This document shows positions 28,039 to 50,308 of a stretch of DNA of 64,000 bases, one piece after another. The stretch is from Nitrospirae bacterium GWC2_57_13. GTDB taxonomy: Bacteria; Nitrospirota; UBA9217. Numbering within the stretch: position 1 is the stretch's first letter; each line of letters starts with the position of its first letter. The notes under the pieces are model-generated. The model was not told the DNA's origin. It did no database searches and saw only the letters and a list, made by a program, of their open reading frames with translations. The translations under genes were made by a program, and so were the position numbers. The stretch is from positions 4,404-68,403 of the forward strand of contig MHDZ01000033.1 in assembly GCA_001805055.1 (NCBI GenBank), read 5' to 3'.

Positions 28039-28578
28039 ATGAGCGAAGAGGGTATTACGCGACGAAATTTCATGATACGGACGATGGTTTCCATTTTCGC
28101 CTTCATCGGTGCGGCGCTGGCTGTCCCCCTCGGGGGGTTCAGCATCTTTCCGGCGTTGAAGCGCCGCGAGAGCGGATGGAGCGATGCCGGCACCGCTCGG
28201 GACCTGAGAGTGAATGTTCCTCAGGAACGCCGTTTTTACGAGGTCGTCAAAAAGGGCTGGCGGGAGGAAAAGGTCGAGCGGGCAGCCTGGTTCGTGAAGC
28301 AGGAGACTGGAATCATAGTCGTCTTCTCTCCGAGTTGTCCGCATCTGGGATGCGGATACCGGTGGCTTGCGGCAACGCAGCGCTTTGAATGCCCCTGCCA
28401 CGCCAGTGTTTTCGATATAAACGGCAAAGTGCTTTCCGGCCCTGCGCCGAGGGCGCTTGATGTCATGGAGTCGAGACTGGACAACGGACGGGTCCTGGTA
28501 AAATTCGAGATATTTCAACTGGGCACGCCGAAGAAGGTGCTTGCTTGGAGGAGGCGTCATGCTGAAACGGGTGCTTGA
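28039..28578 (+). CDS. Rieske [2Fe-2S] protein of a cytochrome bc-type complex (Tat substrate)
   Basis: RRNFMIR twin-arginine motif. CPHLGC...CPCHASVF Rieske boxes. Confidence 0.85.
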   Translation: MSEEGITRRNFMIRTMVSIFAFIGAALAVPLGGFSIFPALKRRESGWSDAGTARDLRVNVPQERRFYEVVKKGWREEKVERAAWFVKQETGIIVVFSPSCPHLGCGYRWLAATQRFECPCHASVFDINGKVLSGPAPRALDVMESRLDNGRVLVKFEIFQLGTPKKVLAWRRRHAETGA

Positions 28579-29884
28579 CTGGCTTGATGAACGGATCGAG
28601 GTGCGAAATCTTTGGGAGACCATGACGAACCGGCCCATCCCGGGAGGGTCGAGTTGGTTCTACGTACTTGGGTCCTCGCTGCTCTTTGTGTTCGCGCTCC
28701 AGATGGTGACCGGCATTCTGCTGACGCTGTACTATGCGCCCGTGCCGGACCACGCCTACCAGAGCGTCAAGTACATTCAGGAGGAAGCCCTGTTCGGAAG
28801 CTTTGTCCGCGGGTTGCATCACTGGGGCGCAACATTCATGGTGGTGCTCGTGTCACTGCATATGCTGCGCGTCTTCGTGTTCGGGGCCTACAAGAAGCCG
28901 CGGGAGGTCGTTTGGCTCGTCGGCACCGGTCTCTTTCTGATCGTATTCGGATTCGCCTTTACAGGCTATCTGCTGCCCTGGGACCAGAAGGCCTATTGGG
29001 CCACCGTAGTCGGGACGAACGTGGCCGGGACGGTGCCCGTCGTGGGCGGATTTCTGCTGCGGATCATTCGCGGCGGAGCCGAACTCGGAGATTTTGCTCT
29101 GAGCCGGTTCTTCACGATCCATACCTATATCCTGCCCTGGAGCCTTGCGCTACTTGCAGGTCTTCATGTGTTCCTGCTTGAGCGGGCCGGGGCCGGCGGC
29201 ACATGGAATGCTGCGGAGCGCACGCCCTATCGATCGGAGCCGCTCTTCCCGCACCAGATATTCAAGGACAGTATTTTCATCCTGCTGCTGGTTCTCGCCC
29301 TTTCGTCATTTGCCCATTTCTTCCCGGCCCCTCTGGAGCCCCAGGCAGATCCGACTGACAGCACCTATAATCCCCGGCCGGAATGGTACTTCTATGCCGT
29401 GTTCCAGATGCTGCGCATCTTCGAGGGGCCCTTTGAATTGATCGGGACCGTGGTCCTGCCTACGGTGGTGATCACACTGCTGCTGCTCGTACCGTTCATA
29501 GATCGCAGGCCGGAAAGGGATCCCTGGCGCAGGAAGGCCATGATGACCGCGGCAGCACTGGCCGTTGCTGGTGTTATGGCGCTGACCATTGCCGGGGCCC
29601 GGGCCCCGATCGTAGGCGTCCCTGCCGTGACGGAAGAATCGGCCCTGGCGGGCCGCCAGGTATATGCGCGGTCCGGGTGCGTTGCCTGCCACAGCATCCA
29701 TGGCAAAGGCGGGACCATCGGCCCTGACCTGACCGGCGTGGGTGCGCGGAAGGACCGTGCGTGGCTCGACAAATTCCTTGCCGATCCGCAGGCGGTCAAG
29801 CCGGGCGTCCTGATGCCGAAGCCTGATGTCACTGATTCGGAGCGGCAGGAACTGGTTGATTATCTGCTGAGCCTGAAGCAATAA
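28559..29884 (+). CDS. cytochrome b fused to a C-terminal monoheme cytochrome c domain
   Basis: Cytochrome b N-terminal motifs (conserved His in TM helices, PEW-like EWY). C-terminal CVACH heme c site. Confidence 0.85.
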   Translation: MLKRVLDWLDERIEVRNLWETMTNRPIPGGSSWFYVLGSSLLFVFALQMVTGILLTLYYAPVPDHAYQSVKYIQEEALFGSFVRGLHHWGATFMVVLVSLHMLRVFVFGAYKKPREVVWLVGTGLFLIVFGFAFTGYLLPWDQKAYWATVVGTNVAGTVPVVGGFLLRIIRGGAELGDFALSRFFTIHTYILPWSLALLAGLHVFLLERAGAGGTWNAAERTPYRSEPLFPHQIFKDSIFILLLVLALSSFAHFFPAPLEPQADPTDSTYNPRPEWYFYAVFQMLRIFEGPFELIGTVVLPTVVITLLLLVPFIDRRPERDPWRRKAMMTAAALAVAGVMALTIAGARAPIVGVPAVTEESALAGRQVYARSGCVACHSIHGKGGTIGPDLTGVGARKDRAWLDKFLADPQAVKPGVLMPKPDVTDSERQELVDYLLSLKQ

Positions 29885-29940
29885 CGAGATAAATCCAGTT
29901 GCGTGATCTCGACGCCGATATCGTCTGCCCCGGAGGGATC

Positions 29941-29980
29941 AAAATAAAAACCCTTCCCCTGATGTAAGGGGAAGGGTTGA
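29941..29980 (-). terminator. terminator for the mrp operon on the minus strand, possibly bidirectional
   Basis: CCCTTCCCC-loop-GGGGAAGGG hairpin flanked by A/T runs. Confidence 0.5.
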
Positions 29981-30019
29981 ATAAGCGCGTGTGACTCTTC
30001 AGCCGCGAACCTGTTACTG

Positions 30020-31807
30020 CTAGTATTTCAGGAGGAGATAGGCGAATAGGAACAATGTTGCCCAGAGGACGCTCTGGCCGATGGGCCGGTTCTTTACAAT
30101 GTCTCCGGGAAAAGCCGCCTTCTCCGCCTTCAGTCTTTGCCCAATGCCTGCCTTCTGTTCTTCTCTGCTGAACCTCAACAACAGGGTGTCCGCACCGATT
30201 TTTACCGCCGAAAGCGGATTTTTACTGAACCATGACAGGGAAGAAGGGATCGCGTCAAAAGCGACTCTGTTTATCCATACCCCTAACCTCGCCATCGGAT
30301 TATTTACAACCCACATGAATGCCCTGGCGCCCTTCCGGTAAAACCAGTCGGCATCGAGGTTTGTCGCCCTGATCTCAGCAGGATATATTCCAGACAGCAA
30401 CAGTAGGGTGAAAGCCAGAGCCGAGAAGAACAGCAACTGCAGCTGGTCAATAACATGGGCGCCCGTGTACGGCGCATAGTCAACAGGATGCGGCAGTATG
30501 CTGTATAGATATCCGGGGAATACGCCGATGAAAATGCAAAGGAAGGCGGCGATCCCCATGGCGAGAAGCATGTTGAGCGGGGCCTCTTTTGTTCGGATTC
30601 CCGAGTCGTGAGAGAAGAACGCAAAATACGGGATTTTAATTCCGGAATGGTGAAAAACACCTGCAGAGGCGAAAATAAGGACAAACCATATGAAAGTCAG
30701 GCCCTCGTGACCGGACGCACTCACGATCATGGATTTGCTCACGAATCCACTAAAGAGAGGGAAACCTGATATTGATGCGGCGCCAATGATGCAGAATAGG
30801 GTCGTAAGCGGCATACTCTTGTACAGTCCGCCGAGGTCGGTGGCGTTTATTTTACCTGTTTGGTGCAGAACCGCGCCCATTGACATGAAGAGCAGGGCCT
30901 TGTACAGGATATGGGCAAAGGCATGGGCGACCGTACCGTTCAGCGAAAGCGCTGTGCCAATCCCGATGCCCGTCACCATGAACCCGACCTGGTTGATCAG
31001 GCTGTAGGATAGCACCTTTCTCAAATCGTTTTCAATGACCGCGTAAAAGATGGGGAAAGCAGTCATTGCGACGCCGATCCAGATCAACAGGTCGGTGCCG
31101 GGAAAAGACCTCGCAAGAACATAGACGGCGGTCTTGGTGGTAAAGGCGCTCAAAAAAACCGTGCCGGAAAAAGTCGACTCCGGATAAGCATCCGGAAGCC
31201 ACGCATGGAGAAGCGGGAAGGCGCCGTTTATTCCGAATCCGATCAGGATAAAATAAGACGCAAGGCTGTTTAAGCCCAGATACCCGAATTCGATTGACCC
31301 GGTGGTATGCACATGGATGAGTATGCCCACAAGGAGACAGAGCCCGCCGAAGATATGGACCAGAAGATACCTGAAACCGGCCGCCTGGGATCCGGCCCTC
31401 TTGCCTGCCCAGACAAGATACGCCGCCGCGAACGCCATGACTTCCCAGAATACGAACAACGAGAGCATGTCTCCGGCGAATACCGCGCCTAATGCGCTTC
31501 CCGCATACAGAAAGGCCGCCACATGCTGGCCTGCTTCCTTGACACGAACGGCATAGAGCGCCCCGATAAAGGACACAATCGTGAAGATATATCCAAAGGC
31601 CATGCTGAGCCTGTCAACCCTGCCGAACACCATCTGATAGTCCAGGAATGGAACGGACCAGTGCGTACCCACCTGTATGTTAAGGAGGTTTATAAAAGCG
31701 AAAACGGGCAGGATGAGCATGTACGCAGCCCGGACCCGGCCCTTGAAAAGAGGGATCAAAAGCGCTCCGAGGATGAATATCGCAGACGGGGGGAGCGCAT
31801 TATTCAT
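30020..31807 (-). CDS. Mrp antiporter large subunit (MrpA/NuoL-like)
   Basis: ~595 aa with many TM helices and NuoL/MnhA-type motifs (WLPDA, GxxFxxSK). Start at MNNALPP with RBS GGAGAAGGG. Confidence 0.8.
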   Translation of the reverse strand: MNNALPPSAIFILGALLIPLFKGRVRAAYMLILPVFAFINLLNIQVGTHWSVPFLDYQMVFGRVDRLSMAFGYIFTIVSFIGALYAVRVKEAGQHVAAFLYAGSALGAVFAGDMLSLFVFWEVMAFAAAYLVWAGKRAGSQAAGFRYLLVHIFGGLCLLVGILIHVHTTGSIEFGYLGLNSLASYFILIGFGINGAFPLLHAWLPDAYPESTFSGTVFLSAFTTKTAVYVLARSFPGTDLLIWIGVAMTAFPIFYAVIENDLRKVLSYSLINQVGFMVTGIGIGTALSLNGTVAHAFAHILYKALLFMSMGAVLHQTGKINATDLGGLYKSMPLTTLFCIIGAASISGFPLFSGFVSKSMIVSASGHEGLTFIWFVLIFASAGVFHHSGIKIPYFAFFSHDSGIRTKEAPLNMLLAMGIAAFLCIFIGVFPGYLYSILPHPVDYAPYTGAHVIDQLQLLFFSALAFTLLLLSGIYPAEIRATNLDADWFYRKGARAFMWVVNNPMARLGVWINRVAFDAIPSSLSWFSKNPLSAVKIGADTLLLRFSREEQKAGIGQRLKAEKAAFPGDIVKNRPIGQSVLWATLFLFAYLLLKY

Positions 31808-32183: not shown

Positions 32184-33713
32184 TTAATTCCCTCCGGTTA
32201 CGGACGTTACCGCAATCCGCGCAAGATCAAAAACTAGTGACGGCATGAAAAATAATGCGACCGCCCCGATCGCGGTAAGAACCAGCGGCACGACCATCAG
32301 GGCAGGGGCCTCGTGTATTTTCAGTTCGGAGTTCGGAGTGTGGAGTTCGGAGCGAACGCCATGATACTGCCTATGCTCGGCAGCGGGCTCCTTGAAATAC
32401 GCAGCATACACTATCGGCAGAAAATAGCTGGAATTCAGGATCGTGCTCGCTGCAATAACCGCGAGAATGGGCCATTGGCCTGCCTCGATTGAGCCGAGTG
32501 CAATGTACCATTTGCTCAGAAACCCTCCGAGCGGCGGCATCCCGATCATGGAGAGCGCGCCCAGGGTGAACGCGGCCATGGTGAATGGCATTTTTTTGCC
32601 GATTCCGCTAAGCTGGCTGATATCGGACTTGTGGGCCGCCACATAGATCGCACCGGCGGCAAAGAAGAGGGTTATTTTTCCGAAGGCATGCAGAACGATG
32701 TGCATGACGCCGCCAATGATGCCCGACGGGGTGAGAAGAGCGACGCCGAGGATAACGTAGGAGAGCTGGCTCACAGTTGAGTAGGCAAGCCGGGCTTTGA
32801 GGTTGTCCTTTCTGAGGGCGATGATCGACGCCACGATGATCGTGAATGAAGCGAAATACGCAAGGGCTGTGCCGAGTCCGAGGTCTTTCAGCAGGTTCAC
32901 ACCGAATATATGCAGCACGACCTTTACTACGACGAAGACCCCGGTCTTCACCACGGCCACGGCGTGCAGGAGGGCGCTCACCGGAGTAGGGGCGACCATG
33001 GCAGCGGGCAGCCATGAGTGGAACGGCATCATTGCAGCCTTTCCTATGCCGGCCATGAAAAGGACAAAGATCACGATGAGCATGGAGTCCGACGCTTTTC
33101 CCGCAAGGATCCCCTGAGGGGAGAAGTCGAGTGTGCCGGCCGCGTTGTAGGTGAGGAAAATCGCAAAGAGCAGGAACGCTACGGATGTTCCGAGCAGATA
33201 GGCTATGTATCTCCGCGCACCTTTTCGGGCCTCCGGTGTTTCCTTGTGTGCAACGAGCGGATATGTGCAGATGGTGATGATCTCATAGAACAGGAAGGTC
33301 GTGAACAGGTTAGCGGAAAAGGCCACTCCCATTGTTGCTGAAAGCGCGATCGCGAAGCTGGCGAAATATCTCGTCTGGTTGTGCTCTTTCAACGACCTCA
33401 CATAACCGATGGAATAAAATGACGTGATGATCCATAAAAATGACGCGGTGAGGCCGAATAACATCCCGAGAGCGTCCACCCGGAACTGGATCAAAAGACC
33501 CGGGGCAATGGTCAGAACCGTGTATTCAAGCACCTTTCCATCGAGGATAAAGGGAACCATGGATGCAACGAGCGAAAACTTGATTACGCCCGCGAGAATG
33601 GTCCAGGTCTCTCTGAGGTTTTTGTGCCGTTCTCCCGAAAGCAGTATCAGAAACGCGGCAACAAGGGAAACCAGTACTGCCTGCAATGGTCTTGCGGAAC
33701 AAAGAACTTCCAT
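32184..33713 (-). CDS. Mrp antiporter subunit D-like (NuoN/NuoM family)
   Basis: 14-TM proton-pumping subunit family (WLPAAM, HAF motifs). RBS GGAGGAAGG. Confidence 0.8.
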   Translation of the reverse strand: MEVLCSARPLQAVLVSLVAAFLILLSGERHKNLRETWTILAGVIKFSLVASMVPFILDGKVLEYTVLTIAPGLLIQFRVDALGMLFGLTASFLWIITSFYSIGYVRSLKEHNQTRYFASFAIALSATMGVAFSANLFTTFLFYEIITICTYPLVAHKETPEARKGARRYIAYLLGTSVAFLLFAIFLTYNAAGTLDFSPQGILAGKASDSMLIVIFVLFMAGIGKAAMMPFHSWLPAAMVAPTPVSALLHAVAVVKTGVFVVVKVVLHIFGVNLLKDLGLGTALAYFASFTIIVASIIALRKDNLKARLAYSTVSQLSYVILGVALLTPSGIIGGVMHIVLHAFGKITLFFAAGAIYVAAHKSDISQLSGIGKKMPFTMAAFTLGALSMIGMPPLGGFLSKWYIALGSIEAGQWPILAVIAASTILNSSYFLPIVYAAYFKEPAAEHRQYHGVRSELHTPNSELKIHEAPALMVVPLVLTAIGAVALFFMPSLVFDLARIAVTSVTGGN

Positions 33714-33721: not shown

Positions 33722-35209
33722 CTAGAAAACCGATGGAACGGCGAACTGTATCACGGTTGTGATGATCCTGCCGCTGAATAACCCGAGGATCAGGACCCCA
33801 ACAGCCATGACAAGGACCGGGACAAGCATGCCGAGTGGCGCCTCATCCATTACAGCTCTCGCGCTCTTTCCATGACCGGGGTCTGCCGCGGTGAAGTACA
33901 CTCGCTCGATGATCCTGAAGAAGACGATGGCGGTCATCAGGCTGCTGATCAAAAGCACTGCTGCAAACACCCATTTTCCCGCCTCTATCGCTCCGAGCAC
34001 CAGATACCACTTGCTGAAAAAACCGGCTGTCGGCGGAATGCCCACTACCGAGATGCCTCCCACGACAAAGGCGGCCATGGTAATGGGCATGGTTTTGTGG
34101 ATATGCGATAATGAAGCAATGTTCGTATTTTTTGTCTTATAGGCGATCGCACCGACGGCAAGGAACAGGCATGCCATCATGAACGAGTCGTTGAGGATAT
34201 GCAGGATCGAGCCGGTGAGGCCGGTCCTGTTCGCGAAGCTAACGCCCAATACGATGTAACCAACCTCGGCGATCAGGATATAGGCAAGCATCCTCTTGAG
34301 CTCTGTCTGGGCGATTGCGTACCCAGAACCGAAGATCACTGCCGCTGCAGCCACCCAGCCCACGAGGTTCATCACCGGCAGGACCTCGATGGAAAAAAAC
34401 GGCTGGAACACCGTGAAGATGATCCGTATCATCAGATAGGCGCCCACTTTTGTCATGGTGGATGCGACCAGCGCGCTCACTGCAGAGGGAGCAAGCGTAT
34501 AAGCGTCGGGAAGCCATCGGTGCAGAGGGAAAAGGGCGATCTTGAGCGCTATTCCCACCATAAAAAAGGCGAAGGCGACCTGTATCACCGGGGAATGGTA
34601 CAGGCCGGGCAGAAGCCTCGACAGGTCCGCGATATTAAGGGTGCCTGTCATGATATAGAGGTAGCCCACGCCGAGGAGATAAAAACAGGCCCCGATGGTG
34701 CCCATGATCACATAGTTGAAGGCCGCGAGCGGTGCCCGCTTGTCCGGTCCGATGGCCACGAGGGCGTAACTCGCCAGGGAGGTTATCTCAAGGAATACGT
34801 AGATATTGAAGATGTCGCCCGTCACGACAATGCCGAGCAGGCCGGTAACGAGCAGCAGGAAGATGGAGTGGAAATATACGGTCTTGCCGGGAAACTCCCG
34901 TTCAATGCTTTTTCTTGTATAAACGGCGATGACAAGACTGACGAACGATACGATCACGGCCACGAAGCCGCTTAAATGGTCTATCACATACTCAATGCCC
35001 CAGGGCGGCGCCCATCCGCCGAGACGGTAGTGAATGGTCCCGGAGTCAATCACGGTGTTGAGTGCAATGAAACTCGATGCTGCGCTCACGGAAAGGGCCG
35101 CCAGCATCAGGGGGAAGCTGAGCGCTCTCCAGCGCAGCCCCAGGATGATGTTGATCAGAGATGCCAGGAGCGGCACTACGATGATAAGAACAGGAGCGTT
35201 TTTTATCAT
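33722..35209 (-). CDS. Mrp antiporter subunit D-like (NuoM/MbhH family), second paralogue
   Basis: WLPDAY and HILNDSFMM motifs. 495 aa. Confidence 0.8.
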   Translation of the reverse strand: MIKNAPVLIIVVPLLASLINIILGLRWRALSFPLMLAALSVSAASSFIALNTVIDSGTIHYRLGGWAPPWGIEYVIDHLSGFVAVIVSFVSLVIAVYTRKSIEREFPGKTVYFHSIFLLLVTGLLGIVVTGDIFNIYVFLEITSLASYALVAIGPDKRAPLAAFNYVIMGTIGACFYLLGVGYLYIMTGTLNIADLSRLLPGLYHSPVIQVAFAFFMVGIALKIALFPLHRWLPDAYTLAPSAVSALVASTMTKVGAYLMIRIIFTVFQPFFSIEVLPVMNLVGWVAAAAVIFGSGYAIAQTELKRMLAYILIAEVGYIVLGVSFANRTGLTGSILHILNDSFMMACLFLAVGAIAYKTKNTNIASLSHIHKTMPITMAAFVVGGISVVGIPPTAGFFSKWYLVLGAIEAGKWVFAAVLLISSLMTAIVFFRIIERVYFTAADPGHGKSARAVMDEAPLGMLVPVLVMAVGVLILGLFSGRIITTVIQFAVPSVF

Positions 35210-35556
35210 TGCATTTCATCCTCTTCCAGGGTCTTGAACCGCTTGTAAATCAGTATGGCAAGGGCGAGGGCCACGCCGAATGTGCTCACCATGACCACGA
35301 TGGCCGTCAGCATGAGCACGTGCGGCAGCGGGTTCATGTAGTGGGCCGCGTCAACAGCCTGGCCGGCCTGTATGATCGGTATAGTCGCGCCTTTTTTGGA
35401 ACCCATGGATACGAAAAAGAGTATTATCGCGGTCTGGAATATGTTCATCCCCACGAGCTTTTTGATGAGGTTCTTCTTGGCTATCATGGCATATAAGCCG
35501 ATCATCATCAGGAAGATATAGAACCAGTAATTATATTTTCCGATCACGAATTCCAT
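35206..35556 (-). CDS. Mrp antiporter subunit C (NuoK-like)
   Basis: MEFVIGKYNYWFYIFLMMIGLYAMIAKKNLIKKLVGMNIFQTAIILFF is the MnhC/MrpC signature. ATGA overlap with the upstream gene. Confidence 0.8.
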   Translation of the reverse strand: MEFVIGKYNYWFYIFLMMIGLYAMIAKKNLIKKLVGMNIFQTAIILFFVSMGSKKGATIPIIQAGQAVDAAHYMNPLPHVLMLTAIVVMVSTFGVALALAILIYKRFKTLEEDEMQ

Positions 35557-41937: not shown

Positions 41938-43190
41938 TGGTACATGGCGAGCTCTGGACCCTGAAGGAACTGTTCGTCCTGCCCAACGAGTACATCTACT
42001 GGAGCGTCCAGATCGTGATGTATCCCTTCATGACCGGTCTCGTGGCCGGGGCCTTCGTGCTCTCGTCGCTCTACCACGTCTTCGGCATCGAGAAGCTCAA
42101 GGACATGGCGCGGTTCGCCCTGGTGTTCTCGTTCGCGCTCCTGTTTGCGGCGCCGATGCCCATTGTGCTCCATTTGCAGTTTCCCTTCCGGGGCATTAAT
42201 GTATTCATGACGCCGCACTTCACCTCGGCCATCGCGGCTTTCGGCATTGTGTTCTTCACCTACGGCGCCATCGTCGCCTCGGAGCTCTGGTTCCTGTACC
42301 GGAAGCATTTCGTTGAGGTCGCTCTCAGGCTTCGCGAGAAGCAGGACAAGACGATGATGGAGTGGTTCTCGTATCTCATTTTCTGTTCCCTTACCCTGGG
42401 CGTCTATGACGTGAGCGAGGAATCCCTGCATCGCGACGAGAAAGCCATCAAGTTCCTGGCCGCACTCGGCATCCCCGTGGCCTGTTTCCTCCACGGCTAC
42501 GCCGGGTTCATTTTCGGGTCCGTGAAGGCGAATGCGCTCTGGATGACGCCGCTCATGCCGGTCATCTTCATCATGTCCGCGATCGTGTCGGGCATCGCAC
42601 TCTGCATGCTCACCTACATCGTGACCATGGAGATCCGCAAGTTCCTGGCCAAGCGGAAGCGCACCACCTATGGTGTCTACCAGACAACGGATCAGATCCG
42701 GAGCGTCGAGATCAACGTGATCCAGATGACCGCCAAGTACCTGCTGTACTTCATGGTCTTCGCCATCAGCCTCGAGGTGCTGGACCTCATCTTCCGCGGA
42801 TATACGGCCGTCAAGTCATGGGACGTGCTGCGCAGCGTTATCTACGGCAAGGACTTCACGAGCATCTTCATCCTGCAGTACGCCATCGGGAACCTGATCC
42901 CGCTCATCCTGCTCCTGACGCCGGGGCTGACCCTGCGCAGGACCCTGCTCGGCGTGCTGCTCGTGCTCTTCGGTGTGTTCATGATGCGTTGGAACGTGGT
43001 GATCGGCGGACAGGCTTTCTCCCTCACCTTTGCGGGATACATGCACTATCACTTGCCGATCGTGCCGCACTCCATGGAGACGTTCAAGGAAGGGCTCTTC
43101 GGCGCGCTCAGCATCTTCATCATGCCCTTTGTGCTGTTCTATTTCATCAGCAAGATATTTCCGGTCTTCGAGTACAAGGAAGCCCATTGA
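41937..43190 (+). CDS. NrfD/PsrC-family integral membrane quinone-interacting subunit (module 1)
   Basis: ~417 aa with about 10 TM helices. TAATG overlap with the FeS gene. Confidence 0.8.
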   Translation: MVHGELWTLKELFVLPNEYIYWSVQIVMYPFMTGLVAGAFVLSSLYHVFGIEKLKDMARFALVFSFALLFAAPMPIVLHLQFPFRGINVFMTPHFTSAIAAFGIVFFTYGAIVASELWFLYRKHFVEVALRLREKQDKTMMEWFSYLIFCSLTLGVYDVSEESLHRDEKAIKFLAALGIPVACFLHGYAGFIFGSVKANALWMTPLMPVIFIMSAIVSGIALCMLTYIVTMEIRKFLAKRKRTTYGVYQTTDQIRSVEINVIQMTAKYLLYFMVFAISLEVLDLIFRGYTAVKSWDVLRSVIYGKDFTSIFILQYAIGNLIPLILLLTPGLTLRRTLLGVLLVLFGVFMMRWNVVIGGQAFSLTFAGYMHYHLPIVPHSMETFKEGLFGALSIFIMPFVLFYFISKIFPVFEYKEAH

Positions 43191-43221: not shown

Positions 43222-43737
43222 ATGAAGAAGACGATCATGACGCTCCTGATGCTCTTCGGGCTGCTCCTCTCCGCTGCTACGGCTGCGGTTCGCGCCGATA
43301 CGCACGAACCCGACGTCCCGAAGAAGTTATTTGTTCCTCCCCCGCCTTTCACGCCGGGGATCTATCCCTGCTCCCAATGCCACGCAGGCATGCCTGTAGA
43401 CCGTAATCCACGGAAGCTCCAGGGCATGCATGACAACATTGCGTTGAAGCACATGCCGGGAGGCTGGTGCTTCGACTGCCACAACCCGAACAACCGTGAC
43501 ACCCTCCGGCTGGCGAACGGCAAGATCGTACGCTTCGAAGAGTCCTATAACCTCTGCGGCCAGTGCCACGGCACCATTCTTCGCGAATGGAAGGCCGGCC
43601 TGCACGGCAAGCGCACGGGCATGTGGAACGGCGAGAAGCAGTACCTGCTCTGTGTGCACTGCCACTGGCCCCATGATCCGAAGTTCAAGCCAATTCAGCC
43701 ACTGCCGCCCCCGGTGCGGCCGTCGGACATCAAGTAG
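43222..43737 (+). CDS. secreted tetraheme cytochrome c (module 2)
   Basis: Signal peptide. CSQCH, CFDCH, CGQCH and CVHCH heme sites. Confidence 0.8.
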   Translation: MKKTIMTLLMLFGLLLSAATAAVRADTHEPDVPKKLFVPPPPFTPGIYPCSQCHAGMPVDRNPRKLQGMHDNIALKHMPGGWCFDCHNPNNRDTLRLANGKIVRFEESYNLCGQCHGTILREWKAGLHGKRTGMWNGEKQYLLCVHCHWPHDPKFKPIQPLPPPVRPSDIK

Positions 43738-43761: not shown

Positions 43762-44688
43762 ATGCAAGACAAAAAGACACCAGAACGCAGCATTCAGCGG
43801 AGGACCTTTCTGAAAGGCGCGGCGCTCGGCCTGGCCGCCACGGCGCTTCCCTCGCGGGACGCCGAGGCCTCGATCTGGGAGGCCTTTTTTCAGAAGCACT
43901 TCCGAGAGATGAGCGAGGCAGAGATCAGGAAGGTGATCGGGAGGCTTGAGCAGGAATACGAGCAAAAGTACAAAAAAAAGATAACCGTCGGCATTGAGAA
44001 GCCCCTGCCCGGCGTGCTCTTCGGCTACGGTCTCGACCTTTCCCGGTGCATCGGCTGCCGCCGGTGCGTCTACGGATGCGTTGACGAGAACAACCAGTCC
44101 AAGGACCCGCAGATCCACTGGATCACCGTGCTCCGGTTCAAGAAGGGCGAGAAGTGGGTGGACCTGGAAGAATCGGAGAAGTACTACAATCCCTCTGCGG
44201 TCCCGGAGGAGGAGTATTTTTACATGCCGGTCCAGTGCCAGCAGTGCGAGAATCCGCCCTGCGTGCGTGTCTGCCCCACCCAGGCCACATGGAAGGACGA
44301 GGACGGCATCGTGGTGATCGACTACAACTGGTGCATCGGCTGCCGATACTGCATGGCGGCCTGCCCCTACGGCGCACGCCGGTTCAACTGGACCGACCCC
44401 GGACGGAAGACCGAGGAGCTCAACACCGAGACCCACTACCTGGGCAATCGCCCCCGGTTCAAGGGCGTGGTCGAAAAATGCACCTTCTGCATCCAGAGAA
44501 CGCGCAAGGAACCCGGACGGTATCCGGCCTGCGTGGAGGCATGCCCCGTGGGTGCGCGGAAATTCGGCAACCTGCTCGACCCCATGAGCGAGATCCGGTA
44601 CGCGATCGAGCATAAACGGGTCTTCCGCCTGAAGGAGGACCTGAACACCAATCCCAAGTTCTATTACTTCTTTGCCTACGGCGGGTGA
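43762..44688 (+). CDS. Tat-exported 4x[4Fe-4S] ferredoxin subunit (NrfC/DsrO-like) (module 2)
   Basis: RRTFLKG twin-arginine motif. Four Cys clusters, including CQQCENPPCVRVCP. Confidence 0.85.
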   Translation: MQDKKTPERSIQRRTFLKGAALGLAATALPSRDAEASIWEAFFQKHFREMSEAEIRKVIGRLEQEYEQKYKKKITVGIEKPLPGVLFGYGLDLSRCIGCRRCVYGCVDENNQSKDPQIHWITVLRFKKGEKWVDLEESEKYYNPSAVPEEEYFYMPVQCQQCENPPCVRVCPTQATWKDEDGIVVIDYNWCIGCRYCMAACPYGARRFNWTDPGRKTEELNTETHYLGNRPRFKGVVEKCTFCIQRTRKEPGRYPACVEACPVGARKFGNLLDPMSEIRYAIEHKRVFRLKEDLNTNPKFYYFFAYGG

Positions 44689-44702: not shown

Positions 44703-45944
44703 ATGAAAAACCTGATCAGGAACTTTTTCATCGCCGGCAGGCAGGTATTGATCGGCGACAAGACCTATTATGCGTGGATCGCCTTCCTGTCGGTCTTCAT
44801 CCTGCTCGGCCTGAGCGCCTATGTGGACCAGTTGCACCGCGGCCTTATCACCACGGCCATGCGCGACCAGGCCTCGTGGGGCCTCTATATCTCTAATTTT
44901 ACCTTTCTGGTGGGTGTGGCCGCAGCGGCCGTGCTGCTCGTGATCCCGGCGTACCTGTACAATTTCAAGCCTATCAAGGAGATCGTGCTCTTCGGCGAGC
45001 TGCTGGCAATCACGGCCATTATCATGTGCATCCTCTTTATCATGGTGGACATGGGCCGGCCCCTGCGGGTCTGGCATATCCTTCCGTTCATCGGTTCCAT
45101 GCACTTTCCCTCGTCCCTCCTGGCCTGGGACGTGGTGGTGCTGAACGGGTACCTGGCGATCAACACGATCATCGTGTTCTACGTGCTCTACCAGCTCTCC
45201 ATCGGAAAGGAGTACAAGATGTCGGTCATCGGGCCGCTCATCATCCTTTCGATTCCCTGGGCGGTCAGCATCCATACGGTGACGGCCTTCCTCTACAACG
45301 GCCTGTCCGCCCGGCCCTTCTGGAACGCATCGATCCTGGCGCCTCGCTTTCTGGCCTCGGCATTCTGCTCAGGACCGGCCATCATGCTGATCCTGTTCCA
45401 ACTCATCCGGAAGAAGTCCGACGTGGAGATCGACGACCGCGCCATCTTCAAGATCGCCGAGCTGATCGCCTACGCCATGGGGCTCAATCTGTTCCTGCTC
45501 GGCGCCGAAGCCTTCAAGGAGTTTTATTCCGGTACCATCCATTCCTACCCCATCGAGTATCTCTACTTCGGCCTGCACGGAAAGACCGCCCTCGTTCCGT
45601 GGATCTGGTCGGCGACGATCCTGAACATCACCGCATTTTTCCTGTTCCTGTTCCCCCGGACGCGGGAGAACTTTACGACTCTGAACATTGGATGCATTTT
45701 CGTCATCATCGGTGTCTACATCGAAAAGGGCATGGGGCTGATCGTTCCCGGGTTCGTACCCGATACGCTCGGCGAGATATACGAATACATTCCCACGACG
45801 TCCGAGATAGTGATCACCATGGGCATCTGGGCTTTGGGTGCGATGCTCTATACAGTTCTGCTGAAATTCGCCGTCCCCATATATACGGGTAAGCTTCGGT
45901 TCGAGATGAAGGAACAGAAGAGCTATAAAGCATCCCCGTCGTGA
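44703..45944 (+). CDS. NrfD-family integral membrane subunit (module 2)
   Basis: ~413 aa polytopic membrane protein, a paralogue of the 41937 gene. RBS GGGGGAGGA upstream. Confidence 0.8.
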   Translation: MKNLIRNFFIAGRQVLIGDKTYYAWIAFLSVFILLGLSAYVDQLHRGLITTAMRDQASWGLYISNFTFLVGVAAAAVLLVIPAYLYNFKPIKEIVLFGELLAITAIIMCILFIMVDMGRPLRVWHILPFIGSMHFPSSLLAWDVVVLNGYLAINTIIVFYVLYQLSIGKEYKMSVIGPLIILSIPWAVSIHTVTAFLYNGLSARPFWNASILAPRFLASAFCSGPAIMLILFQLIRKKSDVEIDDRAIFKIAELIAYAMGLNLFLLGAEAFKEFYSGTIHSYPIEYLYFGLHGKTALVPWIWSATILNITAFFLFLFPRTRENFTTLNIGCIFVIIGVYIEKGMGLIVPGFVPDTLGEIYEYIPTTSEIVITMGIWALGAMLYTVLLKFAVPIYTGKLRFEMKEQKSYKASPS

Positions 45945-46039: not shown

Positions 46040-46894
46040 TTACTCTTTTGGCGTCTTGGACAGCAGCAGCATGACTACGCCCATGCCGCTTACCAGCAAC
46101 ATCAGGAAACCTGAGAAGTTTTTCCGCGAGCGAAGGTCCGCGAAGGTCCCTGAGATCCCCTTCTCGATATCGTCAAGCTTACGCGTGTACTCGCCGGTAC
46201 GCTCCTTGACGAGGTTTACATCCACGGTGTGAAAGAGCGTCCGGAACTCGGCCTGGGTGCTGAAGAACGCCTGTTCCTGCTCTTCCGGATAGATGCCCGC
46301 CCGGCGGAGCGCCTTGATGCCGTCCTCGATCTCGGTGATCTTCTTTTCAACGAGGAACATGGCCTGTTTCATATCTTGTGCCCTGCCATAGGTATGGCAC
46401 TTTGAGCAGCGCTGTTCGCTGATGATCTCGATGTTCGCCTTCTGGATATTATGGGAGCCGTGGCAAACAACGCAGTGCGGGCCCTTCCCCGATGTTCTGA
46501 GGGCCTTTCCATGACCGCTTTCATTGAAGTACCTCAAAATGCCGACGTGGCACCTGCCGCACAGATCGGGGATCTTGGCGTAGGGCGGGACTCCGATGAA
46601 GCCGCGCTGCTGATGGGACATGGCCAAAGACGGGTCTTTCGGATCACCGCCGTGGCAGTCGTGGCAGGTAATATCGTTCTGCGCGTGCCAGCTTTTTCTC
46701 CATTCATCGACGATCTCACGGAACACAGGCTTCATTCGCTCCGACGCGTGGCAGTCGATGCAGGCATTCTCCTCGATCCGTTCCCCCGACCAGGTCTTTG
46801 ACATGAACTCGCGGGCGAAATCCTCCCGATAACCGGCGGAGGAGATGCCCGGGAGACCGGCGATCAGCAGCAGGGACAGTACCAGTGAACGCAT
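46040..46894 (-). CDS. pentaheme cytochrome c with C-terminal membrane anchor (bc-complex associated)
   Basis: Signal peptide. CIDCH, CHDCH, CGRCH, CVVCH and CSKCH heme sites. C-terminal TM. Start overlaps the cytochrome b stop (ATGA). Confidence 0.8.
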   Translation of the reverse strand: MRSLVLSLLLIAGLPGISSAGYREDFAREFMSKTWSGERIEENACIDCHASERMKPVFREIVDEWRKSWHAQNDITCHDCHGGDPKDPSLAMSHQQRGFIGVPPYAKIPDLCGRCHVGILRYFNESGHGKALRTSGKGPHCVVCHGSHNIQKANIEIISEQRCSKCHTYGRAQDMKQAMFLVEKKITEIEDGIKALRRAGIYPEEQEQAFFSTQAEFRTLFHTVDVNLVKERTGEYTRKLDDIEKGISGTFADLRSRKNFSGFLMLLVSGMGVVMLLLSKTPKE

Positions 46895-47994
46895 CACGAC
46901 CTCCCCCAGAACATGAGGATCACCCATAGCGCGAAAGCGGCGAGGAACATGCCGCGCAGGAACGGCCTCTTCATGATGTTCTTTTCTTTTTCCGTGTCGA
47001 AGAAGGGCCAGAACAGGAACAGAACGAAGAGTGCGACCTGGATGATCACACCCAGGAACTTGTTGGGAATGATCTTGAGCATCTGGTACGGCGCGAGCAG
47101 ATACCACTCGGGCCGAATGCTCGCCGGCGTCCGGTAGGGGTCCGCCGGCATCGTCGCATCCCCGGGGAAGAAGAGGTTCGGCGCAAAGGTTATCAGGAAG
47201 AACATAACGGCCAGATAGACCATCACCATGAAAAGGTCCTTCTGGAAGAACCGGGGATAGTACGGATAGCCGTCGGGATGGTTCTTCTTGTGGTACTCTG
47301 TCCACGGCCGCTTCTCTTCCGCGGACAGTCCAAAGGGTGTCCCCGAGATGCCGATACGCTTGGTCAGGAACAGGTGGAGCCCCAGGAGCATCAGGAAAAT
47401 GGGGGGGAGGATCGAAATATGGAAGGCAAAGAACCTGCTGAGCGTCGCTCCCGTAACCGACTCGCCGCCCCGCAGGACGTTGGCGACGAGATCACCCATA
47501 TAAGGTACGGCTGTCGGAATGGCGGTCGCAACGGTCGTCGCCCAGTAGCTCAACTGGGTCCAGGGAAGCAGATACCCGCTGAACCCGAAGGCGACGGATA
47601 CGAAGAGGAGAAGCGCGCCGACGATCCAGGTAAGCTCCCGCGGCCGCTTGTAGTTTCCCATGAGGAAAACCGTCAGCATGTGCGCGAAGACGACCCCGAT
47701 CAGCAGGTTGCTGCCCATGACGTGCATCTGGCGGAACAGCCAGCCGAAGGGAACCTTGTTCATGATGCCCTGCACGCTCTGGAAGGCGTGGTCAGGATGG
47801 GGAACATAGTAGATGAGAAGGAGGATGCCCGTGATCACCTGGATCAGATACCCCGCGATGGTGACGACTCCCAGGGTATAGAAGATATTGATATTTTTCG
47901 GCACCCGGTATGCGCGGACCTCCTCTTCAACAAGGTCATTGATTCCGATCCGGACGTCGAGCCAGTTCCTCACACGATCCCACATAGTTTTCAC
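46894..47994 (-). CDS. cytochrome b of a second Rieske/cytochrome b complex
   Basis: Cytochrome b N- and C-terminal motifs (conserved bis-His helices, PEWY-like). 366 aa. Confidence 0.85.
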   Translation of the reverse strand: MKTMWDRVRNWLDVRIGINDLVEEEVRAYRVPKNINIFYTLGVVTIAGYLIQVITGILLLIYYVPHPDHAFQSVQGIMNKVPFGWLFRQMHVMGSNLLIGVVFAHMLTVFLMGNYKRPRELTWIVGALLLFVSVAFGFSGYLLPWTQLSYWATTVATAIPTAVPYMGDLVANVLRGGESVTGATLSRFFAFHISILPPIFLMLLGLHLFLTKRIGISGTPFGLSAEEKRPWTEYHKKNHPDGYPYYPRFFQKDLFMVMVYLAVMFFLITFAPNLFFPGDATMPADPYRTPASIRPEWYLLAPYQMLKIIPNKFLGVIIQVALFVLFLFWPFFDTEKEKNIMKRPFLRGMFLAAFALWVILMFWGRS

Positions 47995-48404
47995 CCGATC
48001 ACGATATTTTCGCCGTCGACCCTGAGCGGCAGGACCGGAAGGGGTTTCGGCGGTGGTCCGGAGATAACATGCCCATCAAGATCGAAGGTGCCCGCATGGC
48101 ATGGACAGAGTAGTTGACGGTTCTCTTTATCATAGTGGACGAGACAGCCGAGATGGGTACAGACGCGCGAGAGGGCGATCAGCCCCTTCCCGGGACGGTT
48201 TACGACGACCGCGGGGACATCGTTGAACACGATCTCCTTCGCGTATCCCAGGGGGATGTCGCGTTTCGCAATGACGAGTGTCCGGGCCTTTTCAGCCGTT
48301 CCGGGCGGGACGAGATAGCGGACGAGAGGGTAGAGCAGGGAGGCCAGCGTGGTGATGCCAAGGGCCGACAGTAACAATTGGAGAAAGCTGCGCCTCTTCA
48401 TCAC
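47991..48404 (-). CDS. Rieske [2Fe-2S] protein (second copy)
   Basis: RRSFLQ Tat motif. CTHLGC...CPCHAGTF Rieske boxes. Confidence 0.85.
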   Translation of the reverse strand: MMKRRSFLQLLLSALGITTLASLLYPLVRYLVPPGTAEKARTLVIAKRDIPLGYAKEIVFNDVPAVVVNRPGKGLIALSRVCTHLGCLVHYDKENRQLLCPCHAGTFDLDGHVISGPPPKPLPVLPLRVDGENIVIG

Positions 48405-48818
48405 ACCTCCCCAGTTTGCTGAAGAGAAACTTACTATAGTGAAGTTTCGAATTGCTGCTGATCATCGTATGATAGATCAGCTTTCGTTGTCAAGGGGAAA
48501 ATGGTACAGTTGCAATGTCCAATATGTTTCATTGCATCAGGGGCAGGAACGGATCAAATCGTTCCCGCCGAATCCTGATCAGGACAGGAGAATTGAGGCA
48601 TTCCGGAGCGCGGCTTGTCAGAAGCGCCCTTTAATCCTCTGTATGTCGTTTTTGACCGGATATTCCGCATCTTCGGCCCGAACAAGGGACCGGGGAGCTG
48701 AAGGGCGGCAGACAGGAAAATGTTGTCTGCGGTATTGACATCCATACTGCTCCTGTGATATAAAAACAGGTCTTCATAAAATTCTGTTTTAGAATTTGGA
48801 AGACTTCAGGGGGGGAAT

Positions 48819-49847
48819 ATGAAATTCATTCGCAGGCTGTGGGAGAAGGGACGTGGTGCGTTCAGCGCGGTCCTGGAAAAGCTCCGCGGGCCGCTTTCGC
48901 TCAAGGCGAAGCTGCTCATTCTGACGCTATTGACGGTGATCGTCGCGGGCGGCGGCACCATCTCGTATCTGTTCTATGATTTTACCCAGAACAACCCGAA
49001 ATTCTGCGTCAGCTGTCACTTGATGCAGCCGGCCTATGACACCTGGGCGAAGAGCGAACACAAAGGCCTGAACTGCCACGACTGTCACCATCTGTCGATC
49101 CCGGAGCAGAACCAGCTGCTGATCAGTTTCGTTCTGCGCCGTCCGGACGACGTTCCGGACCGTCACGGGAAGGTCATCGCCGGACTGTCGAAGTTCTGCA
49201 ACGAGTGCCACACGGAAGGGAAGGGGAAGAAGATCAACAGATCACTCTTCCACGCGAAGCACGTGTACATGGAACAGCTTGAATGCACCATGTGCCATGG
49301 CGAGGTCAAGACGGACAAGTCGGGGCTGCATTCATTTCTCCCGACGGAAAAGTTCTGTGTCAAGTGCCACAGCGGCAAGCAAGTGCATGGCGAGGGCATG
49401 GGCGGCCTGGCCTGCCTGAATTGCCATACGGACCGCACCAAGGACCTGAAGCCGGGCAGGAGAAAATGCCTCTACTGCCACAGCTCGGACCAGGGCGTTC
49501 GCGAGATTCTTGAAGAGGGCGGGACCATTGACGTCCGGCATTTCACGCCTGATCCGTCCGTGGTCAAGCGGGCCACGAAGATCGTCTATTCCGATAAGGC
49601 GCCCATGCAGTTCTACTGCTATGAATGCCATCAGGCGCATACGCCGGGCAAGGCCCGGCCGACAACGACGGACTGCCTGAAATGCCACAGCAAGATCCGG
49701 TCAGTCGGGAAGCACAAAATGCACTTGAACATGGACATGAAATGCCAGGATTGCCACAAGCCGCACATCTGGACGGTGACGGAAGCGTCGGCCCGCAAGG
49801 ACTGCGTTGCTTGCCACGAGTATAAAAGTCCGAAGGCGTTCCTTTAG
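48819..49847 (+). CDS. membrane-anchored multiheme cytochrome c with 11 CxxCH motifs
   Basis: N-terminal TM. Heme sites CVSCH, CHDCH, CNECH, CTMCH, CVKCH, CLNCH, CLYCH, CYECH, CLKCH, CQDCH and CVACH. Possible promoter TTGACA at 48735. Confidence 0.8.
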   Translation: MKFIRRLWEKGRGAFSAVLEKLRGPLSLKAKLLILTLLTVIVAGGGTISYLFYDFTQNNPKFCVSCHLMQPAYDTWAKSEHKGLNCHDCHHLSIPEQNQLLISFVLRRPDDVPDRHGKVIAGLSKFCNECHTEGKGKKINRSLFHAKHVYMEQLECTMCHGEVKTDKSGLHSFLPTEKFCVKCHSGKQVHGEGMGGLACLNCHTDRTKDLKPGRRKCLYCHSSDQGVREILEEGGTIDVRHFTPDPSVVKRATKIVYSDKAPMQFYCYECHQAHTPGKARPTTTDCLKCHSKIRSVGKHKMHLNMDMKCQDCHKPHIWTVTEASARKDCVACHEYKSPKAFL

Positions 49848-49984
49848 TGTCGTAAGGGCGACCATGGTCGCCCTTCTTGAGGGGGTGGGCATGCCCCCCC
49901 TGATCGTTCGGCGCGTCTTTTTGCCGGTGATAGCGTTTAGTACAGGAGAATTGCATTCCATCGACGAAAGGAGGTGAATCCTGA

Positions 49985-50308
49985 ATGAAGAAATTTTTTG
50001 TGATCGCGTTGGTTGTTGCAGTAACGGTAGTCCTGGCAGCGTCGGCGTTCGCGGTTGGTCCGGGCAAGACTGTTGAATGGGACGGCAAGGGCGCGGGCAA
50101 GGTCGTGTTCGACGGCAAGGTCCATGCTGATAAGGGCTCCAAATGCGCGGATTGCCATCAGTCCGGTCTCTTCAAGATGAAGAAGGGTAGCGATACCCTG
50201 ACCATGAAGGACATGGAAGCTGGCAAGAACTGCGGTGCCTGCCACAACGGCACCAAGGCTTTCGGCGTGAAGGACGCAGCTACCTGCGCCAAGTGCCACA
50301 CGAAGTAG
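49985..50308 (+). CDS. periplasmic triheme cytochrome c7 (PpcA-like)
   Basis: Signal peptide, then a ~83-aa mature protein with CADCH, CGACH and CAKCH and a Lys-rich sequence typical of the c7 family. Confidence 0.75.
   Translation: MKKFFVIALVVAVTVVLAASAFAVGPGKTVEWDGKGAGKVVFDGKVHADKGSKCADCHQSGLFKMKKGSDTLTMKDMEAGKNCGACHNGTKAFGVKDAATCAKCHTK

Follow-up and report, generated by a model that had tools for sequence, protein, structure and literature searches.

Several membrane complexes that connect the quinone pool to periplasmic cytochromes resemble, in subunit make-up, parts of a respiratory gene island that we describe here from a 64,000-nucleotide stretch (the window) of the metagenome-assembled genome (MAG) Nitrospirae bacterium GWC2_57_13 (GCA_001805055.1, contig MHDZ01000033.1). 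Cbc4 of Geobacter (CbcS-CbcT-CbcU, GSU0068-0070) combines an anchored tetraheme cytochrome c with a periplasmic 4x[4Fe-4S] protein and an integral membrane subunit, and has been proposed to act as a quinol:cytochrome c oxidoreductase that reduces the c7-type cytochrome PpcA (10.1101/2025.04.14.648717). The DsrOhPh-tetrahaem locus, which joins homologs of DsrO and DsrP to a tetraheme cytochrome apart from dsrMK, is found in cable bacteria, some Desulfobulbales, and Gamma- and Betaproteobacteria, and was earlier termed a 'candidate alternative complex III' (PMC13047784; preprint 10.64898/2026.08.25.746951). It also occurs, separate from DsrMKJ, in genomes without sulfur metabolism (PMC13047784). 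For DsrP itself, a cryo-electron microscopy preprint places a quinol-oxidizing site in this subunit, feeding DsrO and then DsrJ (10.64898/2026.08.25.746951). Alternative complex III (ACIII; ActABCDEF) follows the related logic of periplasmic iron-sulfur (FeS) and multiheme cytochrome c subunits on a cofactor-less NrfD-type subunit and works as a quinol:cytochrome c oxidoreductase, and non-canonical bc complexes of Geobacter (Cbc/Ext), anammox bacteria, and Nitrospirota pair a Rieske protein and a PEWY-type cytochrome b with a multiheme or fused cytochrome c that replaces c1 or f.

Aquifers, wetlands, and sediments harbor abundant Thermodesulfovibrionia-like Nitrospirota, whose respiratory chains have been inferred almost wholly from genomes. 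An original prediction made from the window alone had described 22 kb of it (positions 28,039 to 50,308) as a single respiratory block acting as a quinone-pool-to-periplasm electron-transfer hub. Our analysis shows that the 22 kb is two things side by side: ordinary systems on the left and, on the right, a conserved island that extends from hemL to a c7-type cytochrome gene (~38.5-50.3 kb, ~12 kb) and is present in dozens of Nitrospirota contigs. The single block did not hold up, as the Rieske1/cytochrome b-c pair and the Mrp antiporter at its left are not conserved beside the hemL-to-c7 part in relatives. The suggestion that the combination of modules might be uncharacterized stands for the right-hand 12 kb, kept across many Nitrospirota contigs, and falls for the ordinary left part.

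A conserved island with an optional cassette

We used tblastn to compare all proteins of the cluster with loci surrounding homologs of c11, the 11-heme membrane cytochrome near the right end of the island; ~80 c11-centered metagenome loci were covered (related loci are numbered with the prefix L). Contigs carrying the island come from soils, wetlands, sediments, and aquifers and show three architectures. The long form, to which the window belongs, reads hemL-atpZ-atpI-c4a-FeSa-NrfDa-c4b-FeSb-NrfDb-(c5-cytb2-Rieske2, opposite strand)-c11-c7(-c7); this order is common to a 3.08-Mb genome and 12 other contigs, with protein identities of about 60-88%. The short form, found on 21 contigs, reads hemL-atpZ-atpI-c4a-FeSa-NrfDa-c11-c7, and a distant form reads hemL-c11-c4a-FeSa-NrfDa(-atpZ-atpI). 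Module 1 (c4a-FeSa-NrfDa), c11, and one or two copies of c7 make up the core of the island in all forms, and we regard them as invariant because they are retained through the three architectures.

Long and short forms differ in module 2 (c4b-FeSb-NrfDb) and the Rieske2 operon (c5-cytb2-Rieske2), which lie between NrfDa and c11. Of the loci that show NrfDa as well as c11, 13 carry module 2 and the Rieske2 operon together, 21 carry neither, and none carries one alone. The only apparent exception, L134, owes this to bc-like genes of 31% identity that lie 5.7 kb past c7 and belong to a different cluster. An inversion of module 2 in L142 places Rieske2-cytb2-c5-c4b-FeSb-NrfDb on one strand. Neighbor-joining trees of NrfDa and c11, built without support values, intersperse long and short forms: L126 clusters with L162 and L101, and L165/L139 with L124 and L153, all four of these partners being short forms. 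Interspersion of this kind suggests that module 2 and the Rieske2 operon were gained or lost at least ~3 times, always jointly. Module 2 and the Rieske2/cytochrome b2/c5 genes thus appear to behave as one cassette of ~5.2 kb, carried by ~40% of related loci, the window included.

Gene order of this kind could be a pure neighborhood effect, in which the complexes of the island are independent respiratory enzymes kept together by inheritance alone. Such an account would fit the division of the island into three or more transcription units that alternate in strand, and a few insertion or deletion events could explain the co-occurrence. Order is nonetheless kept at 60-85% protein identity over dozens of contigs from varied habitats, c11 relocates in the distant form to the place just before c4a, and the inversion in L142 leaves module 2 beside the Rieske2 operon. 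We consider inheritance alone a very unlikely explanation.

All parts of the island come from known families; the conserved combination, the polymorphism, and the linkage within the cassette are what is new. We found no published description of the conserved island, of its two-state polymorphism (core versus core plus cassette), or of linkage between a DsrOP-like module and a Rieske-cytochrome b-pentaheme set, and literature on this MAG and on Nitrospirota multiheme, Rieske, and NrfD clusters yielded no account of the island. The presence or absence of the cassette in close relatives offers a natural comparative experiment on what a Rieske/cytochrome b complex and a DsrOP-like pair add. More broadly, the island joins three quinone-pool interfaces whose relatives are open problems: Geobacter Cbc3-6, the DsrOhPh-tetrahaem family, and minimal ACIII-like complexes.

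At its left end, the island is anchored by hemL. The closest hemL relatives in GTDB representatives belong to Nitrospirota/Thermodesulfovibrionia MAGs (66-73% identity), and a hemL-centered scan of GTDB genomes returned mostly unrelated taxa and a single locus (L010) with part of the island. A promoter-like site, a consensus match, precedes the gene at 38404-38431. The AtpZ- and AtpI-like genes that follow are orphans in the window (compared with loci L014 11346-12999 and L017 11315-13224), with no atpB or atpE after them. In a Geobacteraceae genome, hemL-atpZ-atpI is followed by atpB-atpE, and in another Thermodesulfovibrionales MAG by pgi. Because the same order occurs in both, hemL-atpZ-atpI is an ancient block, and in this lineage the island takes the place of atpBE. 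Given these orders, we set aside hemL as a functional heme-supply partner and treat it as a positional neighbor. In each of the three architectures the AtpZ/AtpI-like genes accompany module 1, and their products might be accessory subunits of the module 1 NrfD complex. Their presence, with that of unassigned small open reading frames (ORFs), also means that hemL is not, as had been stated, the sole interruption of the block.

Two long-form relatives with the full island, L176 (in the 3.08-Mb genome, ERZ25039593 contig_51523) and L177, have GH57-queF-tatA-tatC-mobB upstream of hemL, rather than Mrp. There, hemL comes immediately after tatA, tatC, and mobB (L176 4515-6326; L177 4513-6331), an arrangement not seen in the window; the twin-arginine translocation (Tat) machinery needed for export of FeS and Rieske proteins thus borders the island in these two loci.

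Composition of the modules

Domain assignments were made by Pfam and NCBIfam profile searches of the window proteins with equivalog cutoffs applied (Table 1). These hidden Markov model searches, which the original prediction had proposed as a check, recovered all of the modules it had named. Its count of 28 heme-c sites in 22 kb was borne out by ORF translation and a six-frame CxxCH scan, which place one site in the cytochrome b-c fusion and 4, 4, 5, 11, and 3 in c4a, c4b, c5, c11, and c7, respectively. The scan, covering ORFs of at least 60 aa across the whole 64-kb window, found no CxxCH outside these six ORFs, and this CxxCH-free remainder, taken as an internal control, sets the heme enrichment well above chance. 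Pfam confirmed the two Rieske/cytochrome b sets, the first with a cytochrome b-c fusion and the second with a pentaheme cytochrome, and CxxCH counts, Pfam, and the 16 Cys of each FeS protein confirmed the two tetraheme/FeS/NrfD modules. Histidine counts permit bis-His ligation in c4a, c4b, c5, and most c11 hemes.

Table 1. Genes and other features of the 22-kb block and its right border (window coordinates)
Feature	Position	Strand	Assignment and evidence
Rieske1 [2Fe-2S] protein	28039..28578	+	PF00355; 179 aa, RR leader, one transmembrane (TM) helix
Cytochrome b (b6 + subunit IV parts) fused to C-terminal monoheme class-I cytochrome c	28559..29884	+	PF00033, PF00032, PF00034
MrpD-like subunit, third	30020..31807	-	PF00361; NF009310 755 bits vs cutoff 564; 595 aa
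Unassigned small ORFs	31800-32042, 32057-32182	-	No family assignment
MrpD-like subunit, second	32184..33713	-	PF00361; NF006236 667 bits vs cutoff 663; 509 aa
MrpD-like subunit, first	33722..35209	-	PF00361; 495 aa
MrpC/NuoK-like subunit	35206..35556	-	PF00420
MnhB-domain subunit	35558..36016	-	PF04039
MbhE-like subunit	36013..36288	-	PF20501
MbhD-like subunit	36285..36530	-	PF13244
MrpG	36527..36865	-	PF03334
MrpF	36862..37170	-	PF04066
MrpE, first gene of Mrp operon	37171..37647	-	PF01899; NCBIfam MrpE models below cutoff
ORF between Mrp and hemL	37729-38118	-	129 aa; no family match; may not be a real gene
hemL, glutamate-1-semialdehyde aminomutase; island left anchor	38511..39794	+	PF00202
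AtpZ-like small membrane protein	39931..40173	+	80 aa; PF09527; TIGR02230 below cutoff
AtpI-like small membrane protein	40173..40607	+	144 aa; PF03899, weak match
c4a, membrane-anchored tetraheme cytochrome c	40679..41152	+	157 aa; 4 CxxCH, one N-terminal TM helix; PF14537, PF09699
FeSa, predicted Tat-exported 4x[4Fe-4S] protein	41149..41937	+	262 aa; PF13247 (Fer4_11-type); 16 Cys, RR leader
NrfDa, cofactor-less NrfD-family membrane subunit	41937..43190	+	417 aa; PF03916 117 bits; ~9-10 TM helices
c4b, tetraheme cytochrome c	43222..43737	+	171 aa, signal/anchor; 4 CxxCH; PF09699, PF14522
FeSb, DsrO-like predicted Tat-exported 4x[4Fe-4S] protein	43762..44688	+	308 aa; Fer4_11-type; PF10518 TAT signal, 16 Cys
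NrfDb, DsrP-like NrfD-family membrane subunit	44703..45944	+	413 aa, 10 TM helices; NF045798 DsrP 426 bits vs cutoff 350
c5, pentaheme cytochrome c	46040..46894	-	284 aa, signal peptide + C-terminal TM anchor; 5 CxxCH; TM-like segments at both ends
Cytochrome b2, b6 + subunit IV parts in one chain	46894..47994	-	366 aa; PF00033, PF00032; RPEWY
Rieske2 [2Fe-2S] protein	47991..48404	-	137 aa; PF00355, PF25471; CTHLGC...CPCHAGTF
Divergent intergenic region Rieske2/c11	48405..48818	.	Promoter-like sites 48493-48464 (-) and 48755-48782 (+), consensus matches only; no Rfam family
Called gene in Rieske2/c11 divergent region	48554-48745	-	63 aa; no Pfam match on record; may not be a real gene
c11, membrane-anchored undecaheme cytochrome	48819..49847	+	342 aa; 11 CxxCH; NapC/NirT/NrfH-like tetraheme head + seven more hemes
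c7-type triheme periplasmic cytochrome	49985..50308	+	107 aa, signal peptide; PF14522 E 3e-19; TIGR04257 83 bits vs 40
tRNA-Sec (selC), island right border	50369..50467	-	ARAGORN; Rfam RF01852 66 bits

Module 1 appears to belong to a clade without an assigned family. NrfDa reaches no NCBIfam equivalog (26 bits on the DsrP model), and a profile of its family identifies ActC of ACIII as the nearest solved structure (6f0k_C, E 1.6e-20); PDB sequence searches with c4a, c5, and single-sequence NrfDa gave no significant match. An AlphaFold2 model of NrfDa built from 27 homologs of 82-93% identity was too poor to use (mean predicted local distance difference test score 51.6). The protein is highly constrained in this widespread island, being 83-100% identical to the best 120 Nitrospirota homologs listed, and its relatives number 1232 representatives in a 50%-clustered protein library. 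Full-length relatives in Gallionellaceae/Ca. Ferrigenium share 36-46% identity, and one in Ferroglobus shares 32%. FeSa is 50% identical to its Ferrigenium homolog, which lies in an operon where a c4a-like tetraheme domain fused to two class-I c domains precedes the FeS and NrfD genes. At L175, from the Fe(II) oxidizer Ca. Ferrigenium, hemE and a gene for a hemL-like aminotransferase flank a module-1-type operon of 6-heme cytochrome, FeS, and NrfD genes (1953-3017, 5871-9215, 14188-15516), a second instance of heme-biosynthesis genes close to module 1. At L002 (3109-4920), from a Rifle sample, the NrfDa and c4b frames were called as one 603-aa product; an assembly variant or a frameshift in the 31-bp NrfDa-c4b spacer is the probable cause.

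Both modules share with Cbc4 an anchored tetraheme cytochrome c, a periplasmic 4x[4Fe-4S] protein, and an integral membrane subunit, a likeness of subunit make-up drawn from the description of Cbc4; in modules 1 and 2 the genes overlap or are tightly spaced. They differ from Cbc4 in their setting, a Nitrospirota island that also encodes an 11-heme NapC/NirT-like protein and, when long, a Rieske/cytochrome b complex. ActC is also the nearest PDB chain to NrfDb (6f0k_C, E 2e-11). Relative to ACIII, however, FeSa and FeSb have Fer4 domains only and no molybdopterin-like domain, the cytochrome is tetraheme rather than pentaheme, and ActD, ActE, and ActF are missing. The two modules are not close to one another: identity is 27% over 51 aa between NrfDa and NrfDb and 33% between FeSa and FeSb, and c4a and c4b have no significant similarity. 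These values rule out tandem duplication as the origin of the pair, which appears to comprise old and distinct modules rather than paralogous copies.

In its subunit make-up and its DsrP and DsrO scores, module 2 resembles the DsrOhPh-tetrahaem locus. It differs in lacking a TMH1 gene, in its Nitrospirota host, and in its strict linkage to a Rieske/cytochrome b/pentaheme operon, which is unreported for the cable-bacteria locus. A narrower reading would take module 2 for the DsrJOP portion of a DsrMKJOP complex that has been split, serving dissimilatory sulfite/sulfate reduction, and leave the remaining genes unrelated. NrfDb passes the DsrP cutoff, FeSb approaches that for DsrO (NF045797, 189.8 bits; cutoff 200), and Thermodesulfovibrionia include sulfate reducers. 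Nevertheless, c4b has four CxxCH motifs and no NCBIfam match and is therefore not the triheme DsrJ with its His/Cys heme; no DsrM- or DsrK-like gene was found in the window or in related loci; module 2 always accompanies Rieske2/cytochrome b2/c5; and the DsrOhPh-tetrahaem genes occur elsewhere apart from DsrMKJ in genomes lacking sulfur metabolism (PMC13047784). We see only a slight chance that this reading is right. In the comparison with DsrJOP that had been suggested, NrfDb scores above its cutoff, FeSb just below, and c4b has no match.

The Rieske2 operon is of a non-canonical type. In high-potential Rieske proteins, a Ser and a Tyr raise the potential of the cluster; Rieske2, with CPCHAGTF, is without both. 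Cytochrome b2 is 38% identical to the cytochrome b part of the fusion protein at the left of the block. Neither of the two Rieske/cytochrome b sets reaches the NCBIfam equivalogs for b6 (235 and 217 bits vs 325), PetC (59 and 79 bits vs 250), ExtP, or QcrA/B, and there are partial matches to the Geobacter ExtP/ExtQ b-cytochrome models. The heme ci-binding cysteine of the 'FYCLGG' type is absent, with FYTLG and FYVLG in its place. What distinguishes the Rieske2 set from other non-canonical bc complexes is its linkage to a DsrOP-like module, which is new as far as literature searches reach.

The 11-heme membrane cytochrome was predicted correctly. A CxxCHxM first motif is characteristic of the NapC/NirT/NrfH family, and c11 has such a motif (CVSCHLM) after a single N-terminal TM helix (residues 26-44). 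Its match to PF03264 is marginal (25.1 bits vs cutoff 24.1), it matches NrfH in the PDB (2j7a_C, E 1.9e-6), and it misses the NrfH equivalog (TIGR03153, 47.6 bits vs 134.2). These features are shared with NrfH, NapC, CymA, and ImcH, although c11 has eleven hemes instead of the four of NrfH and CymA or the seven of ImcH and adjoins no nitrite, nitrate, or trimethylamine N-oxide reductase. Its family comprises 426 homologs, and all those with a named source come from Nitrospirota/Thermodesulfovibrionales MAGs.

The downstream c7 had been called PpcA-like. It does belong to the c7 fold family (PF14522, TIGR04257), but it is not a PpcA ortholog, as it misses the Geobacter c7 equivalog (NF043011, 32 bits vs 120). 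The whole protein has only four His for three hemes, so two of its hemes probably have a distal ligand other than His. A tandem second c7 follows c11 in L100, L103, L108-L111, L116, L128, L134, L139, L142, and L161; the window has one.

Direction of electron flow

In each module, redox subunits that face the periplasm (FeS or Rieske proteins exported by Tat, and c-type cytochromes bearing a signal or anchor) sit on a quinone-interacting membrane subunit, which makes a quinone-pool/periplasm hub a fair reading of the domain content of each module; what does not follow is that the whole 22 kb forms one unit. We propose that the island, lying beside unrelated systems at its left, encodes parallel menaquinol:periplasmic-cytochrome oxidoreductases, a proposal built on analogy to which we give an even chance. 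Core module 1 would be a minimal ACIII-like complex, with the quinol site in NrfDa, four clusters in FeSa, and c4a as the anchored tetraheme cytochrome, c11 would be a quinol dehydrogenase of the NapC/NirT/NrfH type that has grown to 11 hemes, and the one or two c7 proteins would be soluble carriers. Menaquinol would be oxidized on the periplasmic side at NrfDa, NrfDb, the NrfH-like head of c11, and the Qo site of cytochrome b2, releasing protons into the periplasm. Electrons would pass through FeS or Rieske centers to multiheme cytochromes of mainly bis-His ligation and meet at c7, which would carry them to terminal reductases encoded elsewhere, with a soluble or extracellular acceptor. The parallel entry points would probably serve different acceptor potentials or energy yields, as has been proposed for ImcH, CbcL, and CbcBA in Geobacter.

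All five quinone-interacting devices of the block face the periplasm, and we favor the quinol-to-periplasm direction because their closest characterized analogs, namely NrfH/NapC/CymA, Rieske/cytochrome b complexes, DsrP, and (as proposed) Cbc4, mostly oxidize quinol. Several points weigh against our proposal. NrfD-type complexes run both ways, and Qrc reduces menaquinone (PMC6303296, PMC8076601). The closest relatives of module 1 outside Nitrospirota are in Fe(II)-oxidizing Gallionellaceae, where the fusion of the tetraheme cytochrome to two class-I c domains would suit electron input to the quinone pool. Co-location and co-occurrence are evidence of linkage, not of physical or functional coupling, and the neighbor-joining trees behind the gain and loss events carry no support values.

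The opposite direction is accordingly a serious rival. The NrfD modules would then resemble Qrc: hydrogenase, formate dehydrogenase, Fe(II), or reduced sulfur would supply electrons in the periplasm, and c7 and the tetraheme cytochromes would pass them on to menaquinone, with the bc complexes and c11 redistributing electrons or running in reverse. Qrc, which is related to NrfD-type complexes, works electrogenically as a cytochrome c3:menaquinone oxidoreductase (PMC6303296), the Fe(II) oxidizers carry the module 1 family with a high-potential di-c-domain fusion, and c7 has too few His for three bis-His hemes, which suggests higher-potential His/Met hemes. However, the NrfH/NapC-type head of c11 and Rieske/cytochrome b complexes normally oxidize quinol, DsrP has been reported as a site of quinol oxidation (10.64898/2026.08.25.746951), and no hydrogenase or formate dehydrogenase gene occurs in the island or ~35 related loci. 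Taken as a whole, an electron-input hub seems unlikely.

The original prediction had likened the block to systems used for extracellular metal or electrode respiration. Read in this way, it would be a dedicated hub for extracellular electron transfer to Fe(III), Mn(IV), or an electrode, covering the inner-membrane and periplasmic steps of a pathway like that of Geobacter. Its parts do parallel those of Geobacter (a NapC/NirT-like multiheme protein as in ImcH, a tetraheme/FeS/membrane complex as in Cbc4, b-type complexes, and a c7), and c7 matches the 'nanowire_3heme' domain model. Relatives of module 1 occur in iron-metabolizing Gallionellaceae and Ferroglobus, and the source was an iron-rich aquifer (PRJNA268031). 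Yet the 64-kb window encodes no outer-membrane porin-cytochrome, OmcS-type polymer cytochrome, or further CxxCH protein, and so nothing that would qualify as an MtrCAB or Pcc conduit; the decaheme MtrA/DmsE and OmcA/MtrC family models match only far under cutoff. Moreover, Rieske1/cytochrome b-c and Mrp lie outside the conserved unit, and in one relative the former stands beside a heme-copper oxidase, pointing to oxygen rather than metals. Deletion of cbcS in Geobacter gave no Fe(III) or Mn(IV) phenotype (10.1101/2025.04.14.648717), and the lineage here is Nitrospirota (Thermodesulfovibrionia-like), not Geobacter. We therefore rate a dedicated extracellular hub as quite improbable, and the locus illustrates that a heme-rich gene neighborhood is by itself poor evidence for extracellular electron transfer.

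Within the proposed set of parallel menaquinol oxidoreductases, we can also imagine the cassette as one new respiratory supercomplex, in which multiheme cytochromes connect an NrfD-type quinone module to a bc complex running a Q cycle, though we are doubtful of it. If such a supercomplex did plug into the core, these Nitrospirota could tune the proton yield of quinone-pool turnover or reverse it, and a function would be found for the DsrOhPh-tetrahaem family and for orphan Geobacter Cbc complexes.

The left part and the borders

The left third of the 22 kb is a lineage-specific juxtaposition of ordinary systems, since the downstream neighbors of Rieske1/cytochrome b-c vary, Mrp is missing beside it in relatives, and Mrp is not conserved beside hemL. 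Rieske1 (CPHLGC...CPCH, in longer form CPCHASVF) scores under every NCBIfam equivalog cutoff, and the 441-aa fusion has one CxxCH and an RPEWY (PEWY Qo) motif. Homologs of the fusion were compared in four relatives (L092, L093, L174, and L178; 64-76% identity). The upstream NUDIX neighbor is kept in three of the four, and L174 additionally keeps an rpsA-like S1 gene, an S49 peptidase, and HU upstream. Downstream lie sensor kinases (L092), COX1/COX2/SCO1/UbiA (L093), a molybdopterin oxidoreductase (L174), or a flavoprotein (L178). None of the four has Mrp beside the pair, and neither Mrp nor a Rieske1 homolog was found in the ~80 c11-centered loci. We regard Rieske1/cytochrome b-c as an independently placed, ordinary two-gene menaquinol:cytochrome c oxidoreductase, probably a conventional complex. 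In L093 (11662-18014), the homolog (64% identity) adjoins heme-copper oxidase genes (COX1, COX2, SCO1, and heme O synthase), a neighborhood that hints that the pair may feed an oxidase. In L174 (4388-6607, minus strand), a Ni_hydr_CYTB-type b cytochrome adjoins a 479-aa multiheme cytochrome near the homolog, resembling the CbcL/CbcBA pairing of Geobacter.

The predicted Mbh-ordered Mrp antiporter is indeed present, as a ten-gene operon (30020-37647, minus strand) with the order E-F-G-MbhD-MbhE-MnhB-C-D-D-D, two subunits of which exceed MrpD equivalog cutoffs (NF009310 and NF006236). The order E-F-G-MbhD-MbhE-MnhB-C-D is that of the Mbh membrane arm; here, by contrast, there are three antiporter-like subunits and no MbhJKLMN. 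Membership in an Mbh hydrogenase-type complex was ruled out, as no NiFe/FeS peripheral module (MbhJ-N) lies between 28 and 38.5 kb, and partnership with the cytochrome modules was ruled out because the position is not conserved in relatives. Mrp is thus a stand-alone cation/proton antiporter with Mbh-like gene order. Its stretch (window 30000-38000) has a G+C content of 0.52-0.55, compared with 0.57-0.60 around it; the low value and the non-conserved position could reflect acquisition, or the composition of membrane-protein genes.

With at least five transcription units on alternating strands, the 22-kb block is not one operon. Promoter-like sites, all consensus matches only, stand at the expected unit boundaries, a terminator scan gave no excess over shuffled expectation, and the Rfam scan returned tRNA-Sec alone, with no riboswitch or regulatory RNA. 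That tRNA gene lies 60 bp past c7; a Kef-type exchanger gene and then selB and selA come next on its strand (52641-54539 and 54700-56133, minus strand), so that the selenocysteine machinery adjoins the island. Proteins identical to those of the window occur on contigs of Rifle aquifer metagenomes. The window flanks consist of housekeeping genes; at 9940-13795 (plus strand), the gene for a Y-family polymerase (IMS) is preceded at a distance of a few genes by that for a LexA-like S24 peptidase, the two likely forming an SOS mutagenesis pair unrelated to the island.

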